Shown here piece after piece: positions 2,757 to 50,867 of a DNA stretch of 64,000 nt (positions within the stretch are counted from its first letter, which is position 1; each line of letters begins with the position of its first letter). The notes under the pieces are model-generated. The model ran no database searches. It was not told the origin of the DNA and saw only the letters and a program-made list of their open reading frames with translations. Source of the stretch: Octopus vulgaris (taxonomy: Eukaryota); contig OX597816.1 in NCBI GenBank assembly GCA_951406725.2, forward strand, positions 131,502,001 through 131,566,000, written 5' to 3'. The position numbers and the translations under genes are program-made.

Positions 2757-3470
2757 TTTTGTGGTAAGAAGCTTACTTCCTAACCACTTGGTTCTGGGTT
2801 CAGTCCCATTGCATGACACCTTGGGCAAGTGTCTTCTACTATGGCCTCAGGCCGACTAACTTTCAAACAATTGAAGATAGCTGAATATGTTACCTGTCCT
2901 ATGACATGAATGTGTGTGTATGTGTGTGTGTGTGTGTTTGTGTTTGCATTTGTCTCCCTCACTGCTTGACAACCAGTGTTGGTTTGTTTATGTCCCTGTA
3001 CATAACAGTTCAGCAAAAGAAACTGATGGAATAAGTAAAAGGTAAAGACCCCCTTCAGCCATGAATGACCATGGAATTGCACCTAGAAAGTTCCCCTCCA
3101 AGGTACAAGCCTGGTCAAGGTTGTTTATGGAAAACCAGCATTTGTCCTGGCATGCCAGCTTCCCCTCTCCACTCCACCGATGTTATCCAAGGGAAAGGCA
3201 AAGGCTGATACAACTTGGCACCAATGATGTCACAACTCATTTCTACAGCTGAGTGAACTGGAGCAACATGAAATAAAGTGTCTTGCTCATAAACACAACA
3301 CACAGCCCTGTCCGGGAATTGAACTCACTATCACATGATTGTGAGCCCAATGCTCTAATCACTGAGCCATGTACCTTCACAAGTACCAGACTTAAAAATA
3401 AGTACTGGAGTCAATTTGTGCTCCAGTATGGCTGCAATCTAAAGACTGAAACAAAAAAAGGCCAAAAGAG
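2757..3470 (+). mobile_element. tRNA-derived SINE family A, interrupted by a nested SINE
   Basis: Head gtggtaagaagcttacttcc...gggttcagtccc (A/B box-like) and CORE-like ccttgggcaagtgtc. The 3' part resumes at 3381 and matches the copy at 31048-31455. Confidence 0.8.
3038..3380 (-). mobile_element. tRNA-derived SINE family D nested in family A
   Basis: The reverse strand reads tggctcagtgattagagc...gagttcaattcccgg (A and B boxes) and ends in a tttacctttt tail. It is flanked by a 5-bp duplication aagta (3033-3037 and 3381-3385). Confidence 0.8.
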
Positions 3471-9057: not shown

Positions 9058-10003
9058 AAGGTGACGAGTTGGCAGAATTGTTAGCATGCTGGATGAAATG
9101 CTTACTGGTATTTCACATATCGCTATGTTTTGAGTTCAAATTCTGCCAGAGTCAACTTTCATCCTTTTGGGATCGATGAAATAAGTACCAGTGAAACACT
9201 GGGGTCAATATAATTGATTAGTCCCCACCTCAAAATTTCAGGCCTTGTGCCTGTTGTAGAAAAGATTATTAATACAGCAAGCTGGAAGAATTGCTAGCAT
9301 GCCAAGCTGTCCTTATTTTCTGAGTTCAAATGCTGTTGAGATCAACCTTGCCTTTCATCCTTTTGGGTTTGATGAAATAAATACCAGTTGCACATGGGGG
9401 GAGAGAGCAGTGCTCTTTTGACCCTGATCTTTTGGCTTTGTGCCAAAATTTAAAATCAATTATTATTATTACTATTATTATTATAATCAGGCAGTAACTG
9501 AGCTCAAATTCTGCTGATGTCGACTTTGGCTCTCATTCTTTCAGGGTTGATAAGTACCAGTTACACACTGGGGTTGATGTAATCAACTTAACCCCCTCCA
9601 CTAAAATTGACAGCCATAAATGGGTTCTCCTGCTTGTGTGCCATGGTGCAGAGTCCTGTTGCCAGACATAGGGTCTTCTAGCAGCTACCCTCTTGACCCA
9701 GGGCAGCATTACCTCCTCTTTCAGGGTTGATAAGTACCAGTTACACACTGGGGTTGATGTAATCAACTTAACCCCCTCCACTACTATAGTAGAAAGGATT
9801 ATTATTAATATTATTAATAATGCAGCAATCTGGCTGAATTCCAGGCAAAATGCTAAGTGGCGTTTCCTCCATCAGATTCCACTGAGGTCGACTTTGCCTT
9901 TCAGCCTTTTGAGCTCAATAAAATAAGTAACAGTTGAACACTTGACTTAGCCCCTCCTCAAACCTGATGATCTTGTGCCGAATTTGAAACCATTGTTATT
10001 ATT
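9058..10003 (+). mobile_element. Head-to-tail array of four SINE family B copies
   Basis: The unit gagttggcagaattgttagcat...tgagttcaaattctgc...gtcaactttgcctttcatcc...aagtaccagt recurs at about 9058, 9275, 9490 and 9820. Each copy ends in a short (ATT)n run. Confidence 0.85.
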
Positions 10004-10004
10004 A

Positions 10005-10745
10005 TACAGGCATGGATGTGCTGTCAGGCTTACCCAAGGTGCACGCAAAGTAACGAAACCCTTCTGCATGCCCTTGTTCAGTGTCCAGGCATTGCTGACT
10101 TGTGGGGTTATGTTGAACAGCTGCTGTCATGTGTGGAACGGATCCATCTGTTAGCTGAGTCTGTAGTGATGATTTCCCTGCCACCCTCCTTCAATCGGGC
10201 AAGCAAAACAGTTTTCCATTGCCTGGTAGCTGTGGTGAAAGAGGTTGTTTGGTGGACAAGGCTGAGAGGCATGATGACAGATACATTCCTCTTTGGTAGA
10301 GCTCTCACTGACTTCTTCAAGTTTCACTTGAAAAAGAAACTGAGAGTGGAGAGGGAAGTGCTGTTCTCGAGTGAGTCTATTGAAAGGTGGATGAAAGTTG
10401 TGAAAACGACAAGAGTGGATGGTACCTCTTTAAGTGCAGACCTGTGAGTCAGAGAGAAGGGATTGAAGAGGGCACTTGCTCTTGGGGTTTCTGGGAAATT
10501 TTGGACAGTAGGGTTCCTCAATTATCCCTAGGGACCTTCCTGTATCAAGAAGGCCACATCTCTATCATCCTCCCCACCATTTCTTTTTAAAACCTTTGTA
10601 TGCTATGCATATATCCCTTTTTTAGTGTATACTATGTATACTTACTTTTTTTTTTTATCATTTCATTGTATGTAAGCCCCCACACTTTATGTCTGTCATT
10701 GTATTGTTCCCCTCATCATTCACCCTTGTGGCAAATAAATGAAAT
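10005..10745 (+). mobile_element. Tx1/L1-group LINE 3' end (zinc-knuckle C-terminus plus 3' UTR)
   Basis: ORF 10016-10447 contains YPRC..SNETLLHALVQCP...LW..V, the CxxC-E-H-C zf-RVT motif of L1/Tx1 ORF2. The 3' end ccttgtggcaaataaatgaa is followed by (ATT)n. Confidence 0.8.
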
Positions 10746-13889: not shown

Positions 13890-14747
13890 CAGGGTGGGAT
13901 GAGTAAATTGCTGCCATTTTATACTTTAATTTCACATATGTACATTGTTTGTTTTTGATTTTGCTGACTACACAGTAAAGTAGGGTCAGTTGGGCACTGT
14001 CTGTGAGAAAAACAGCACCATCCCATAATTCACTCTGCCAGATTTGGAAACGATATGCTGTACTGTTTGGAATTCACTCCAGAAGCTCCAATACAAACAG
14101 ATGGTGAACACACAGAACAACCGTTGGCTTGCTGTGTCCCCAAAAGATGTACTGAAAGTGATAAAAATCAAACATCCAGTCAACATCATGGTGTTTGGAG
14201 TGATCACTAGTGATGGCAATGTTATGCCTCCATTCATCTTCCTACACAGCCTCAGATTCAACAGAAGCCTACATCAAGTGCCTGGACGAGGTAGTGCTGC
14301 CCTGGGTCAAGAGGGTAGCTGCTAGAAGACCCTATGTCTGGCAACAGGACTCTGCACCATGGCACACAAGCAGGAGAACCCAGTCATGGCTATCAGACAA
14401 TTTCTGCAACCACATCACCCCTGACATCTGGACACCTAACTCCCAAGACTGCAACCCCCTTGATCATTATGAGTGGGGTGCAGTTGAGCAAGAGACCAAC
14501 AAAACTCCTTGTAACACTAAAGATGAACTGATGGCAACGATTATGGCAGTATTCATCAACTTAAACATGAAGACCATCCAGAAGAGTTGCAGGAGGTTCC
14601 AAAGTCATCTGAAGGCCATGGTTGAAGCCAATGGTGATTTTATTGAGTAAATTTATGTAATTTTAGTAAATACATTTGTTAAAATGAGATGTCAGTGCTA
14701 TTTTCATTTTTGTGTAACTTAGATGACAATATATTCACTGCACCCTG
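13890..14747 (+). mobile_element. Internally deleted DD37D (maT-family) Tc1/mariner transposon
   Basis: Termini ta|cagggtg...caccctg|ca. ORF 14210-14650 has WQQDSAP...DCNPLD with exactly 37 residues between the second and third catalytic D. Confidence 0.9.
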
Positions 14748-17099: not shown

Positions 17100-17580
17100 G
17101 CTTATTTATTCACATTCTTTTGAATTAATCATTCATTATTTTGTGGCGTGTGATTATTTATTTTTAGAATGACACTGTAGGGTAAGTGTGGGAGGCTGGA
17201 TATGACCAGTTTGGACATAAAATGAACAGAATATTTATTCACATTCTTTGGAATTGATCATTGATTATCTTGTGGCTTGAGATTTTGATGATGTAGTTGT
17301 TTATTTTTAGAATGACATTATAGGGTAAGTATGAAAGGCTGGATATGGTCAGGTTAAACATAAAATGAACAGAATATTTATTCACATTCTTTATTCACGT
17401 ACTTTTGTATTGATCATTCATTATCTTGTGGCTTTGTGACTTCGATGATGTGAATGTTTATTTTTAGAATGACATTGTAGGGTAAGTATGAAGGGCTGGA
17501 TATGGCCAGTTTGAACATAAAATGAACAGAATATTTATTCACATCCTTTTGAATTAATCATTTAAATACCAAAGGGTTAA
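17100..17580. repeat. About 3.5 tandem ~130-bp copies of a piggyBac-like MITE interior, ending at an aagggttaa terminus
   Basis: The unit atttattcacattc...tttttagaatgacattgtagggtaag...acataaaatgaacagaat repeats. The same family is at 24811-25030 and 60629-61276. Confidence 0.75.
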
Positions 17581-19604: not shown

Positions 19605-20813
19605 TTAAGTATTTCCCATAGATAATGGCTAGAACTAGAAATATCATTGGTTGGGAATCCAACAGGGGGCGACACTAGACAGATATGGGGTTTTTACACC
19701 TTTTTAGTGTGGTGTTGTCATAACTCTAGTAGTAGGTTTCTTTTACCACAAACCATAGTGTGTAGTTGCGACTGTTACTAAATGTTAACATGATTACAGG
19801 GCTTGGAATAATGAAAGAGCCATTCTTACACTTCACAAAAAATTGAATGTAATCAAGAACAGATACGCGTTCACCAACAATATGCTTCGTGTGAAGCTGT
19901 GCACAAATGGGAAAGTTACATACAGTTTAGCCTTGTCATGCTCTGTGTTGAAGGGAATATAATAGAAAATGTATGAAAGAATTTTGTACCACAATTGGTT
20001 TGCTAGTAGCATAAGATTAATTCATATGCATGTTGTGTAGTATAAAAAGGCTTGCCGTGCATGGTTGCTGCTGGAAGTCATTTCTTTGGCTTAGGCCACG
20101 TAGACAAACTTAGCTTCTCTCCACAATGACAATGTGTCCAGGTCAGAGTTTGGTGAAGAAGAGGACGGAACAAATTTCTTGTTTAATAGATAGCTTCAAA
20201 GACTGCTGACTCCCCCTGGTAACTGAAAAGCTTCCAGAGCCTTCCATGACTCAGCGGTGTTACTGAAAGGGACATAAATCTGCTATTCAGGGAAATTTTC
20301 AAGAATATTCACCAAGGGAGGTCATTGTGGTTGGATCCCCAACTTCCAGCAAACAATAAATAATATAATGACAGAATCTATTTCAATCTATGTCACACCT
20401 ACACCTTTTTACCATAAGAGAGAAATTTTGCCCCATGGTAACTGCAGTGAATTTGCCTTTTAGCAGTTGAAATATGTGACAAACATATTTCAACTAACCT
20501 AAAGTTTACTTATGCCTAAACGCTGCTTGGCATCAGTGGTCTACTGGTGCAAATCAATATTGTTGACTGCATTTTAGTTAAAGCCATGGCTTTCATAAAG
20601 TCTGTCCAGAGTTGCCTCTCTTAGGTATTTCCCATTGATAATGGCTAAAGAGCTAGAAACATTGATGTATGGGAATCTGACAGTGGACAACACTGGACAG
20701 ACATGGTGTTTTTACATCTAAATACTATAAGAAAGAATTTTCCCCCATAGTAACTGCAGTGAATTTGTCTTTTAGCAGTTGAAACATGTCACAAACATAT
20801 TTCAACTATCCTA
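19605..20813. mobile_element. Unclassified ~900-bp element followed by an internally deleted ~190-bp copy
   Basis: 19605-19700 matches 20622-20720, and 20411-20500 matches 20725-20813. A 13-bp subterminal hairpin agttgaaatatgt-gacaa-acatatttcaact is present. Confidence 0.6.
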
Positions 20814-29751: not shown

Positions 29752-30366
29752 TCATCATCATCATCATCGTCGTTTAGCATCCGTTTTCCATGCTAGCATG
29801 GGTTGGACGGTTCTACTGGGGTCTGTGAAGCCAGAAGGCTTCATCAAGCCCAGTCAAATCTGGCAGTGTTTCTACGGCTGGATGCCCTTCCTAACGCCAA
29901 CCACTCCGTGAGTATAGTGGGTGCTTTTTACGTGCCACCCGCACAGGTGCCAGACAGAGCTGGCAAACGGCCACGAACGGATGGTGCTTTTTATGTGCCA
30001 CCGGCACAAGGGCCAGGCGAGGCTGGCAACGGACACGAAACGGGGCGGTGCTGGCAACGGTCGCGAAACGGAAGGTTCTCTTACATGCCACCGGCACTGG
30101 TAACACATCTGCAATTTCCATTGATCGATTTCCATTCTGATCCTCACTTGCCTCAACGGGTCTTCACAAGCAGAGTTTCGACATGCCACCGGCACTGGTA
30201 ACACATCTGCAATTTCCATTGATCGATTTCCATTCTGATCCTCACTTGCCTCAACGGGTCTTCACAAGCAGAGTTTCGACATGCCACCGGCACTGGTAAC
30301 ACATCTGCAATTTCCATTGATCGATTTCCATTCTGATCCTCACTTGCCTCAACGGGTCTTCACAAG
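29752..30366 (-). mobile_element. Young family C copy with three tandem 98-bp repeats
   Basis: CpG-rich copy. acatgccaccggcactggtaacac... starts at 30083, 30181 and 30279, with essentially identical units. Confidence 0.9.
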
Positions 30367-30859
30367 TAGAATTAAAAAATTAAGGTTTAGAAAAGCAGTG
30401 TTAAATGCAGTATCCAAACCTTGTTTCAAGGGAAGTCCCAGGTAGTGTAGCTGTAGAGCATGTTCACCACTTTATGGCTCCCAAGTGTTATCAAGATTAC
30501 TGTGTGTTCGTTGTCATTGGATCCATGTCTGGAATTCCAAGGTGTGCATAGGGTATATTTTAAATGATTGATATAAAAGACGGAGTGTAACTAGAATCTT
30601 TATTAACACAACAATCATTTTGGCTTCATTCTGCATTGTTCTCTAGTGGGTGTGGGACATGTAATAACATTAGATGCAACGCACAGTGCAAAAAAGCCTC
30701 AACAGGTTGAGTAACATGCTTCAAAAGTTAGCAGATTTACATTTCATTTTCGCTCTAAGTTATACACTGGTGGTGAGATACAAGCAGTTTAGATACATTA
30801 GGAAAGAAGCTGAAACGATTGTTGTGCTAATAAAACTTCTAATTACATTGTATCAAGCA

Positions 30860-32192: not shown

Positions 32193-33900
32193 CACTACCG
32201 TCAGAAATTAATTAGCACCCTTGATTTGCTCTTCACTCAAGGTATTTGCTGTCACCTAGTGGCCATATCTCGAACTATTGCTTTGTTGCGAGTTCACTGT
32301 TGCGCAGAACGATGATGTAACTTTGTTTGCAGAGTGGTTTGAGAGTCTACAGCCTAATGATGTTGACATAGCAGTGCAACAACTTGGAGTGCGGATGCAG
32401 ACAAATCTTCCTTTGTTTAATAGATATAGGTAGCGCCTCGCAAGGACCGAAATCACACCGTACTAAGTTTTCTCATCGCGTAAGACGTTTTGAACAGCTC
32501 GTAGGTTAATTGATTTGTGTATTTGCAAGATTTTTTTTCCTCACAAATTCTCCTACACTCTGCTTCGTGACGTCGCTTCCAGTTCACAAAACTTTCTGTT
32601 ATACATCAAATAAAGTGAGAAATTCTGCTTTCTTTCTTTTTTGTTTAATGAATAATAACTCATAGCAGTTTTGTTATAGCATAACATTATTCAAATGAAT
32701 AGTTTTAATGAAAATAACTGGTTTTTATCGTTCATTCCTAGATGGGCCCAAGACCTCGCATGACCTTGGAGAGACGGTACGAGGCTCTCTCGTGGCGTGG
32801 GAAGCTGTCGGAGGCTGCAATAGCCAGAAAACTTGGTGTAGCCAGGCGCACAATTCAGTGCTTATTTAAGAAATACGAGGAAACCGGATCAGCAGCTGAC
32901 AAAAAGGGTAGGGGATGGAAGAGGCTGACGCCCCAGCGGGAGGACCGGATGCTGATCCGAAAGTCACTGTACAACCGAAGGGCAACGAGCCGGCAACTGG
33001 CAGAGGAGATGCAAAAGATGACAGGGAAGCAGTTGTCTACAACCACTGTCAAGACCAGATTACTGGAAGCTGGTCTAAAATCCTGTAGGGCTGCCCGTAA
33101 GCTGCTCCTTACAGCCCAAAACCGGAAGAGGCGGCTGCTCTGGGCCCGTGCCCACAAGACATGGACCGTGCAGCAGTGGTGGACAGTGATGTTCACTGAC
33201 GAGTCGCGATTCAGTCTCGTCAGTGACAAGCCTGTCCATGTGCGACGCCGCAAGGGTGAGCGCTTCAACAAAGACTGCATTGCTCCCACCATGAAGCATG
33301 GTGGGGGTGGTCTGATGGTGTGAGGGGCGTTCAGCTACAGTGGTGTTGGGCGGCTCTATGCCGTCGAAGGCAACATCAATGCAGCAAAGTACGTTGAGAT
33401 AGTATGGGATACCTCTTTGGTGGCGAGGAGTACGTGCTCCAGCAGGACAACGCGCCTTCCCACACAGCCAAGCTCACAACCGGTTTCTTCAAGGACCATG
33501 GGGTGACGGTCATGGACTGGCCTGGCCAGTCACCTGACCTGAACCCTATTGAGAACCTCTGGAGTCGATTGGGTAGGGATTTGAATGTGCAGCAATACAG
33601 GAACCGACACGAGCTGTTTGGGGCACTTCTTGCAGCATGGAGGGCCATCCCTGCACAGTACCTGCAGGCACTCATAGACAGCATGCCGACCCGCGTAGCA
33701 GCTGTCATTGCTGCCAAAGGAGGAGCAACAAGATATTGACTAAATTTCATGATTAATAACAATTATGTGGTGTGCTGGGATATGTTTTAATAAATTTTTG
33801 ATTAAAAACGAGTTCGTTTCTTATAATAAGTTAATTAAATTAAGAAAATGTAAGAAAATGTAGAAATTTGAGAAGTGCTAATTAATTTCCGACGCAAGTG
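32193..33900 (+). mobile_element. Near-complete Tc1 transposon (DD34E), 1708 bp
   Basis: TA|cactaccgtcagaaattaattagcac ... gtgctaattaatttccgacgcaagtg|TA gives 26-bp TIRs with 3 mismatches and a TA duplication. Confidence 0.95.
32742..33739 (+). pseudogene. Tc1 transposase, disrupted by one stop (33321-33323) and a frameshift near 33400
   Basis: HTH N-terminus, then VMFTDESRF, KHGGGGLMV*G, LQQDNAPSH and WPGQSPDLNPIEN. There are 34 residues between the second D and the E. Confidence 0.95.
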
Positions 33901-42219: not shown

Positions 42220-42655
42220 TACACACTGACACTACTGGTTAAATATTTTACACCAACACTAGTTAACTAATATTAGTTTCTCACTGTTGTTAGTCAACTA
42301 GTATTTCATAGAGACACTAGTTAACTAGTGTTTAACACTGACACTAATACTTTGTATCGACATTGGTTAACCAGTATTTCAGAGAGATATAAGATAACTA
42401 GTATTTAACACTAACATAAGTCAACTAATATTTCACATTGAACTTTAACTAGTTTCCCACTGTCGTTAATTAACTAGTATTTCAAAGGGACATTAGTTAA
42501 CTAGTGTTTAACACTGGCACTAGTATTTCATATTGACATTAAATAACTAGTAAGTCAGAGGGACACAAGATAACAAGTTTTAGCACTAACATACGTTAAC
42601 TAATATTTCAAACTGACACTAGGTAATTAGTATTTCACAAGGACACTAGTCAATG
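42220..42655. repeat. Degenerate ~20-22 bp minisatellite with palindromic core actagttaactagt
   Basis: Recurrent cactagttaactagtatttca variants. Confidence 0.75.
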
Positions 42656-48065: not shown

Positions 48066-48133
48066 CATATATCCCAGCATGTAAGATAGACATTAAAAGA
48101 TCATGATGATTTGATGATTATATATATCTATAT

Positions 48134-48223
<90 letters not shown>

Positions 48224-48265
48224 TTACATACATAAATATATATATATATATATGTATATATATAG

Positions 48266-48308
<43 letters not shown>

Positions 48309-48369
48309 CATGAGTTGATGCCTTCTAGTATCTCAAAATTCAATATATAATCATTTATGATTATAGTAT

Positions 48370-48478
48370 TCTACGCTGAAGAGAAAAGAAGTTTTCGGTA
48401 AGATAGAATTATTTAATATTTAAATATTTAATTCTTATGCTTTCCTAAAAACTTGATTTCGAAACTTACGTCCGTAGA
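48370..48478 (+). ncRNA. Type I hammerhead ribozyme candidate with very long stem II
   Basis: UCUACG-CUGAAGA-GAAA...(78-nt hairpin)...UUUC-GAAA-C-UUAC-G-UC-CGUAGA. Stem I is 6 bp, the G10.1-C11.1 pair is canonical, and the GUC cleavage triplet ends at 48472. Confidence 0.8.
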
Positions 48479-48799
48479 TAACTTAAAATTGTATGATAGA
48501 TTGCCGTCAATTCATTCTCTCTTACCTGTTTGTGTCTGCCTTCCAATTGCTGTTTTTACTGAGATCTCCTTTTTAGTAGAAGAAATAGCTATAACTCTTT
48601 GACTGCTATTTCTAAATTCGGTATGTGGTAAGGCAATTCGTTGCTAAACCCTTTATTGCTTATATATACATACATGTACACATATACACACACATACATA
48701 CATACATACATACACACACACGCACACACATATTTATACTAGAAGTTTTTTTAAGGATGGGTGCTGAAGCCAGGATAAGCATAATGTTTTTATGCAATA

Positions 48800-50044: not shown

Positions 50045-50867
50045 TCTGATATAATAAATATGAATGTCAGTGTGTCACACTTTTTCAACTTTCATAAATC
50101 CTTTCTACTGGAAGCACAAGGCCTCAAATTTTGGGGAAAGGAATTGAGTCAATTACATCGACTCCAGTATGTAACTGGTACTAATTTTATCGACACTGAA
50201 AAGATGAAAGGTGAAGTCGAACTTGGCAGAATTCAAACTCAAAACTTAGCAGCCGACGAAATACCACTAAGCATTTTGCCCGGTGTTCTAATGTTTTTGC
50301 CAGCTTGCCACCTCAATATAAAAATATATGACATAATAAATGGGAATGTCAGTGTCACACTTTTTCAACTTTACTCCTAGAGGCTGTAGTCCAACAAATA
50401 CCATTTTGGAGTCAGGCTGACTCAGTGAGTAAATTAAAAACATTCCGGGGCGAATCCAGACCCATTATCCTGACAGTTTGGATTCTCAAGTTTTCATTAC
50501 TGTGATTGTTTTTGGCAATTTTTTTTATGTGATTTTTTGCGACAAATTTTTTTGTATGATAACAATTTTTATAATCTAAAGGCTAACTCTGTGAGTAAAT
50601 TAAAAACATTCTAGGCCGAATCTGGACCTGCAATCCTGAAATTTTGGATTCCTATGTTTTCATTACTGCGATTGTTTTGGGAGATTTTTTTTACTTGATT
50701 TTTGCAACAAATATGATCATCATTGGGATATGACTCTGGAGGAAGCAATTGCAACAAATTCTCTAAAACAAGTCAGAGATCTGTTTGCAGAACTTCCCAT
50801 TTGGGGTCAGTTACTTAAAAGCTATATAGTAGCTTAAAAGCCACATGATAGGGCGGCTTTTAAGCTA

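Follow-up and report, generated by a model that had tools for sequence, protein, structure and literature searches.

A truncated copy of a probable non-LTR retrozyme with a long-stem-II hammerhead motif in a (TA)n microsatellite of Octopus vulgaris

The window, a 64,000-nucleotide (64-kb) stretch of Octopus vulgaris DNA, contains one insertion of 352 bp on the forward strand, lodged in a (TA)n microsatellite (Table 1). The initial annotation had recognised an ORF-less module of ~350 bp in TA repeats, with TA/CA microsatellite on both sides; these properties hold, but the module has its limits at 48311–48662 and proved to be a fragment of a 594-bp unit. The fragment corresponds to unit positions 1–345, forms a single 5'-truncated arm and is 97% identical to a natural unit from another locus (L003). 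Relative to the unit it has an 8-nt duplication within stem II, lacks 1 nt and carries one substitution. It is the only unit-like match within the 64 kb. Its CpG dinucleotides are retained, as had been remarked, with an observed/expected ratio of 1.0 for the module; the ratio for the whole window is 0.25.

Table 1. Features of the insertion and of its flanking microsatellites, in window positions.
Feature	Positions	Strand	Remarks
Left (TA)n target microsatellite	48119..48310	.	
5'-truncated single-arm insertion, unit 1-345	48311..48662	+	97% identity to L003 unit
Type I hammerhead motif (stem I, core, stems II and III)	48370..48478	+	
78-nt stem II: 4-bp basal helix, 2x2 purine-rich internal loop, further helices	48383..48460	+	
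8-nt duplication enlarging the stem II apical loop	48415..48422	+	7 nt in 601-bp subfamily
Stem III, G>T at 48466; family form ACGTACGT is a perfect palindrome	48464..48471	+	
Predicted self-cleavage site, GUC, after C48472	48472..48473	+	Hammerhead consensus position
3' end at site A (unit 345), preceded by ACCCTT motif (as at site B)	48646..48662	+	
Right TA/TACA/CA microsatellite	48663..48732	.	

Elsewhere in the window, two forward-strand frames (32742–33736) have the look of a broken Tc1/mariner transposase, and smaller remnants are present at 14204–14647 and 9536–9871. Further tandem repeats are found at 17234–17549 (period 157 bp), 30083–30370 (98 bp), 42274–42610 (176 bp) and 50414–50712 (166 bp). 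Hammerhead-like patterns at 20635 and 34249 were unconvincing on reading and were rejected.

The insertion carries a complete type I hammerhead motif, as had been proposed, with the CUGANGA, GAAA and NUH elements of the core, three stems and an open stem I. Read from the window letters, TCTACG (48370–48375) pairs with CGTAGA (48473–48478) to form stem I, the core segments are CTGAAGA (48376–48382) and GAAA (48461–48464), and stem III, AC-TTAC-GT, consists of two base pairs and a four-nucleotide loop. Stem II, earlier described as an imperfect hairpin of 78 nt, is indeed such a hairpin, with a predicted energy of −14.0 kcal/mol. The minimum free energy fold of the module contains stems I and II (z = −3.73, with none of 100 shuffles equal); for the ribozyme alone (131 nt) z is −1.75, and 12 of 200 shuffles are equal. 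In every long form a purine-rich internal loop interrupts the arm after about 4 bp. The length of stem II is likely due to an apical extension that the ribozyme tolerates; in such a model the basal 4 bp and the internal loop may occupy the place of loop 2 and keep the contact with stem I.

Conservation of the stems was analysed by aligning 22 distinct sequences: the window copy, one copy of the main subfamily and 20 of the 28 distinct matches to older subfamilies. Pairing is retained in 95.7% of 484 cells (22 pairs in 22 relatives), a value reached by none of 500 shuffles, and slid controls remain at or below 49.6%. Nine of the 22 pairs have changed on both sides, three of them in stem I, three in basal stem II, two in an apical stem II helix and one in the stem III palindrome, so that the genome-wide check of stem covariation advised by the initial annotation came out positive. 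The weak pairs lie in stem II: the first is unpaired in five of the 22 relatives, and one above the internal loop in ten. The hammerhead thus appears conserved beyond chance; because the rows are mutually related and the central part of stem II, which aligned poorly, was omitted, the covariation is taken as support rather than as a probability.

In the family, stem III reads ACGUACGU or ACGCGCGU, each a perfect palindrome. It is palindromic in 21 of the 22 aligned rows, with GUAC and GCGC covarying, in a set whose row-selection pattern favours palindromes; when the loop sequence was left unconstrained, palindromes occurred in 44 of 60 long-stem matches sampled, against ~8% expected by chance. 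Cleavage as a dimer through a palindromic helix III is established (PMC4209133; PMC7229834), and by its sequence the family stem III would be a signature of this mode. The parts of these two papers that treat newt satellite 2, axolotl and Penelope-like element (PLE) minimal hammerheads (min-HHRs) describe a similarly weak palindromic helix III in need of a partner; helix II is 4–8 bp there, in contrast to the multi-helix arm of 52–78 nt here. Variable stems combined with a palindromic stem III have also been noted in PMC3088659, the examined parts of which describe no such arm. The UUAC loop originally reported for stem III is present in the window copy, but is a private change of the palindromic GUAC of the family: the G>T substitution at 48466 is absent from all 76 array units compared, destroys the palindrome and weakens the self-duplex of stem III from −9.8 kcal/mol in the family form to −2.1 kcal/mol. 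With a single ribozyme and a broken stem III palindrome, the window copy is likely inactive and a transpositional dead end.

A search of the 2.8-Gb genome of the same species returned 1,898 candidates. Copies are 95–100% identical (96–100% for nearly all of the 40 scored), and many lie head-to-tail with a period of 594 bp; in a subfamily with a period of 601 bp, 7 nt of stem II are duplicated, and periods across families and subfamilies are 594/601, 583–602 and 559 bp. Two diagnostic words have 240 and 473 exact matches (none for the reversed controls), a core pattern for older subfamilies has 723, and the family is dispersed across many chromosomes. The unit has a GC content of 34% and 11–20 stops in each of its six frames, by which a rolling ORF through the unit (3 × 198) is ruled out. 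An ORF with reverse transcriptase (RT) and GIY-YIG domains is absent from the six frames of the unit, and none of 82 loci inspected runs on into one or has an LTR-like layout. The predicted fold of the circular unit is stable (z = −7.3 against 30 shuffles). At the family level, then, every tandem unit contains a type I hammerhead, lacks coding capacity and has GC below 50%, as in retrozymes, and the element is likely an animal non-LTR retrozyme, a long-armed form of a known class. The earlier idea of a young retrozyme-like element agrees with these ORF-less head-to-tail arrays, with the near-identity of the copies and with the covarying stems. Contigs of four presumed-RNA runs cover the unit, in a form from which strand, ends and circles are unreadable, and any DNA carried over would be expected to contribute a repeat of such high copy number. 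At one locus (L005:2800-3337), a frame adjoining the array resembles, by eye, a Myb/SANT-like domain followed by polyglutamine.

The footprint of insertion was read from 83 loci, 59 of them distinct insertions in the first 100 of the 473 word matches and 24 from ribozyme-spanning queries; a decayed locus lacking an arm (L230) and one spurious match of 59 bp were excluded, and one locus holds two insertions. Among 124 arm ends, 74 fall at site A (unit 336–358) and 46 at site B (unit 444–459), leaving four others, so that 120 of the 124 arms end at one of two alternative internal 3' ends, a tail signature. Almost all arm ends are adjoined by (TA)n. The 5' ends are ragged; of 120 arms, 43 are longer than one unit and 72 cross the cut site. 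Inverted, head-to-head insertions make up 41 of the 83; 37 of these pair an A arm with a B arm and four have one unclassified arm, with no A+A or B+B pair (binomial p = 5e-8 against 0.5). Where there is one arm, it ends at A in 34 cases and at B in eight, a ratio that partly reflects sampling. Older subfamilies keep both sites. An apparent enrichment of 5' ends just past the cut site (10 against 4.1 expected) was dropped as weak, the interval having been chosen post hoc and others being equally high. The ACCCTT motif precedes site A as well as site B; in mixed hammerhead families a strict regular expression for an end motif of this type found one in 56 ends, any looser likeness being post hoc.

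A DNA satellite of the ordinary kind, propagated by recombination and containing a hammerhead by chance or as a relic, would also form tandem arrays, and satellites derived from pseudo-LTRs (pLTRs) are discussed in the 2026 preprint (bioRxiv 10.64898/2026.07.22.740005). This explanation is very improbable: it is at odds with the dispersal over many chromosomes, with the A+B inversions and with the covarying stems, and the polarity of the ends, fixed at the 3' side and ragged at the 5' side, rules it out. In descriptions of PLEs, a "tail" together with an inverted copy is the signature of insertion (PMC8557442), and an anole PLE studied in vitro starts reverse transcription at two internal sites and nicks both strands (PMC11167929). 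The insertions bear a PLE footprint and were likely pasted in by a Penelope-like enzyme. The sections on EN+ PLEs of the Neptune clade in Craig et al. 2021 (PMC8557442) and Frangieh et al. 2024 (PMC11167929) report features also seen here, namely insertion into (TA)n, truncation at the 5' side, an inverted 5' copy, a choice of two 3' ends and a hammerhead upstream of the 3' end; unlike these PLEs, the octopus unit lacks an ORF, and its A–B distance is ~100 nt instead of 30–40.

A GIY-YIG-like fragment at one locus (L136) led to a young family of ~785-amino-acid frames with RT and GIY-YIG domains. The fragment, which has no family in Pfam, is presumably a GIY-YIG domain, as judged by motifs known to us and by the full RT-EN frames reached from it. 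The loci of this helper family are L170–L174 (for example, G000:C1:85474500-85480500). From its CX4CX2C linker, as described in part of PMC8557442, the candidate helper would be a Neptune-type PLE. It has a (TA)n target, a short U3-A8 hammerhead, a (TTC/ATC)-rich 3' UTR and two 3' ends ~36 nt apart (an optional tail). The longer of these ends finishes in TTTCACCCTT, and the identical 10-mer precedes site B of the unit. A Neptune-type PLE is thus a plausible mobilising partner. This 10-nt motif aside, the unit has no homology to the 3' ends of autonomous PLEs in the four lineages inspected, and the hammerheads of the PLE families inspected are short U3-A8 variants. The lack of a homologous autonomous PLE in these four lineages counts against mobilisation in trans by such an element. 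A PLE match at locus L159 was rejected as homology, being a separate insertion past a TA run. PLE reverse transcriptases are relatives of telomerase, and the motif at site A of the window copy (48643–48655) resembles the reverse complement of a telomeric repeat; a link between the two is speculative.

Could the unit instead be the pLTR or 3' end of an autonomous PLE, its copies being 5'-truncated insertions of that element, as the initial annotation had entertained in the form of a solo pLTR? The ends and the target are of PLE type, many Xenopus retrozymes match pLTRs according to the 2026 preprint (bioRxiv 10.64898/2026.07.22.740005), and the scored GIY-YIG candidates were the best 150 of 16,550. 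This reading is nevertheless improbable, given that units join head-to-tail without a break and that none of the 82 loci runs on into a PLE ORF. The linkage to RT/GIY-YIG ORFs sought genome-wide accordingly came out negative, with none contiguous at the same 82 loci, and the PLE fragments beside three copies are set off by TA runs or by hundreds of bases.

Taking these observations together, the window copy is probably a truncated non-LTR retrozyme with a long-stem-II hammerhead, mobilised in trans by a Neptune-type PLE. In the cycle we propose, a tandem array would be transcribed, and adjacent hammerheads would pair by their palindromic stems III and release 594-nt monomers; the failure of eight of nine Xenopus retrozyme dimers to cleave in vitro, given in the same preprint, counts against this step. 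A host ligase would close the monomers into circles. The PLE RT/GIY-YIG protein would then nick (TA)n, and reverse transcription would begin at either of the two internal sites, ~100 nt apart, just 3' of an ACCCUU motif. Where both target strands prime, one would do so at site A and the other at site B, producing inverted arms in which several units are possible.

The nature of the template can be approached through the arrays. Over 76 units in 20 arrays, unit divergence is 0.47% within and 2.3% between arrays. Sixteen insertion-private variants are fixed in all units of their insertion, up to six units, several of them across both arms. Homogeneous arrays with fixed private variants fit the rolling copying of one RNA monomer; a homogeneous source array could be an alternative origin of the uniformity. 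Of the fixed variants, ten are A>G or T>C, with C>T and G>A absent; among the 68 variants that are partly present, these two categories number 18 and 16, respectively (Fisher p = 0.009 and 0.03, with small numbers). The spectrum hints at RNA-stage changes behind the fixed variants. With the same element and the same PLE enzyme, an uncleaved linear multimer could also be the template, no circle being formed and the hammerhead serving as a passenger or in RNA turnover. It would account for the arms that span the cut site (72 of 120) and for the few B arms that halt at site A (L176, L182), as predicted by twin priming on linear RNA; moreover, hammerhead mutants of the anole PLE inserted unimpaired, and unprocessed RNA was its main substrate (PMC11167929, in part). 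We consider a linear template possible but rather unlikely, in view of the fixed private variants extending through multiple units and both arms, and of the core and stems kept among subfamilies that are 72–88% identical, which points to selection on the ribozyme.

Stem II lengths in homologous families form a series of 25–26, 52–57, 60–61, 70 and 77–78 nt, the direction of which is unrooted. The main subfamily has 70 nt; the shortest form belongs to a homologous family with a 559-bp period (L061, L064), ~64% identical. To count hammerheads by stem II length, the genome was scanned with the pattern CTGANGA-N-GAAACNNNNGTC in three spacer classes, which can overlap; the pattern misses core variants. 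Spacers of 5–35 nt gave 4,074 matches (control 329), spacers of 36–66 nt 10,285 (control 473) and spacers of 67–97 nt 3,084 (control 254), so that, net of controls, ~12,600 of 16,400 pattern matches (77%) have long spacers. The two long classes were each sampled at their first 30 loci, tandem and family repeats included; a palindromic loop is present in 19 and 25 (chance ~8%) and a stem I of at least 2 bp in 26 and 26. By this pattern count, a long stem II is the commonest hammerhead form in the Octopus vulgaris genome. The arm had been called atypical, which is correct insofar as it lies outside the published min-HHR descriptor, which admits a stem II of no more than 7 bp and a loop of 10 nt (PMC4209133, supplement file 2), but not for this genome. 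The accompanying suggestion that the long stem hides the hammerhead from standard models was borne out in part. The descriptor is too short, and Rfam reported no hammerhead in the module and its surroundings at E up to 10, the 116 matches returned being microsatellite artefacts; at the gathering score, however, it had no match in eight loci that included short-stem forms. Since short-stem hammerheads are likewise missed, stem length alone is insufficient to explain the Rfam result.

A wider reading, which we put forward tentatively and at somewhat less than even confidence, is that long-armed, dimer-type hammerheads (stem II 36–97 nt), missed by published descriptors, dominate the genome with these ~12,600 matches over background, and that a PLE dimer writes retrozymes into (TA)n, priming both strands on one RNA circle at the two ACCCUU sites, with A>G and U>C changes from the RNA stage becoming fixed on occasion.

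The compared parts of Cervera and de la Peña 2020 (PMC7229834) and of Li, Clavereau and Pollet 2026 (bioRxiv 10.64898/2026.07.22.740005) place the family close to the metazoan non-LTR retrozymes, with which it shares ORF-less, low-GC tandem units that all contain a type I hammerhead, a 6-bp stem I, a 2-bp stem III with a palindromic tetraloop, a stable predicted circular fold and the presence of PLEs in the same genome. Its 594-nt unit is longer than the 170–400 nt of the 2020 retrozymes and lies outside the ~150–450 bp criterion of that year, but falls within the 51–972 range of the 2026 preprint, which widens the unit range and argues for a PLE origin of retrozymes. Stem II, at 52–78 nt, differs from the ~4 bp plus loop of known animal retrozymes; molluscan hammerheads with longer stems may be present in the supplement of PMC7229834. 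A two-site, inverted A+B footprint in a (TA)n target is not described in the examined parts of either source. The literature searched on octopus or cephalopod hammerheads, retrozymes and long-stem-II type I forms, which took in a minority of the subscription papers, describes neither the family nor its architecture, and the main text of a recent octopus repeat annotation, as far as examined, does not contain the words "hammerhead", "ribozyme" or "retrozyme" (PMC13282606).

The class is thus already known, and the family adds the long arm and a direct two-site footprint. Mobilisation of animal retrozymes by PLEs has hitherto been proposed from co-occurrence and from pLTR similarity; here the PLE two-site footprint is displayed directly, with a strict rule of one arm per site that is open to in vitro test with the young Neptune-type protein of the same genome. 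Descriptors with a short stem II may undercount animal hammerheads several-fold in this lineage, and the stem II series, from 25 to 78 nt, offers natural material with which to examine how the tertiary contact is maintained.

Many unrelated hammerhead repeat families are present genome-wide, with the palindromic loops ATAT, AATT, AGCT, CATG, TCGA, GATC and ACGT. Examples (among L065–L139) have periods such as 534 and 353 bp, and several show two end distances. One abundant family (L120, L133–L138) combines a very stable stem II of 85 nt (~−38 kcal/mol) with a weak or bulged stem I.
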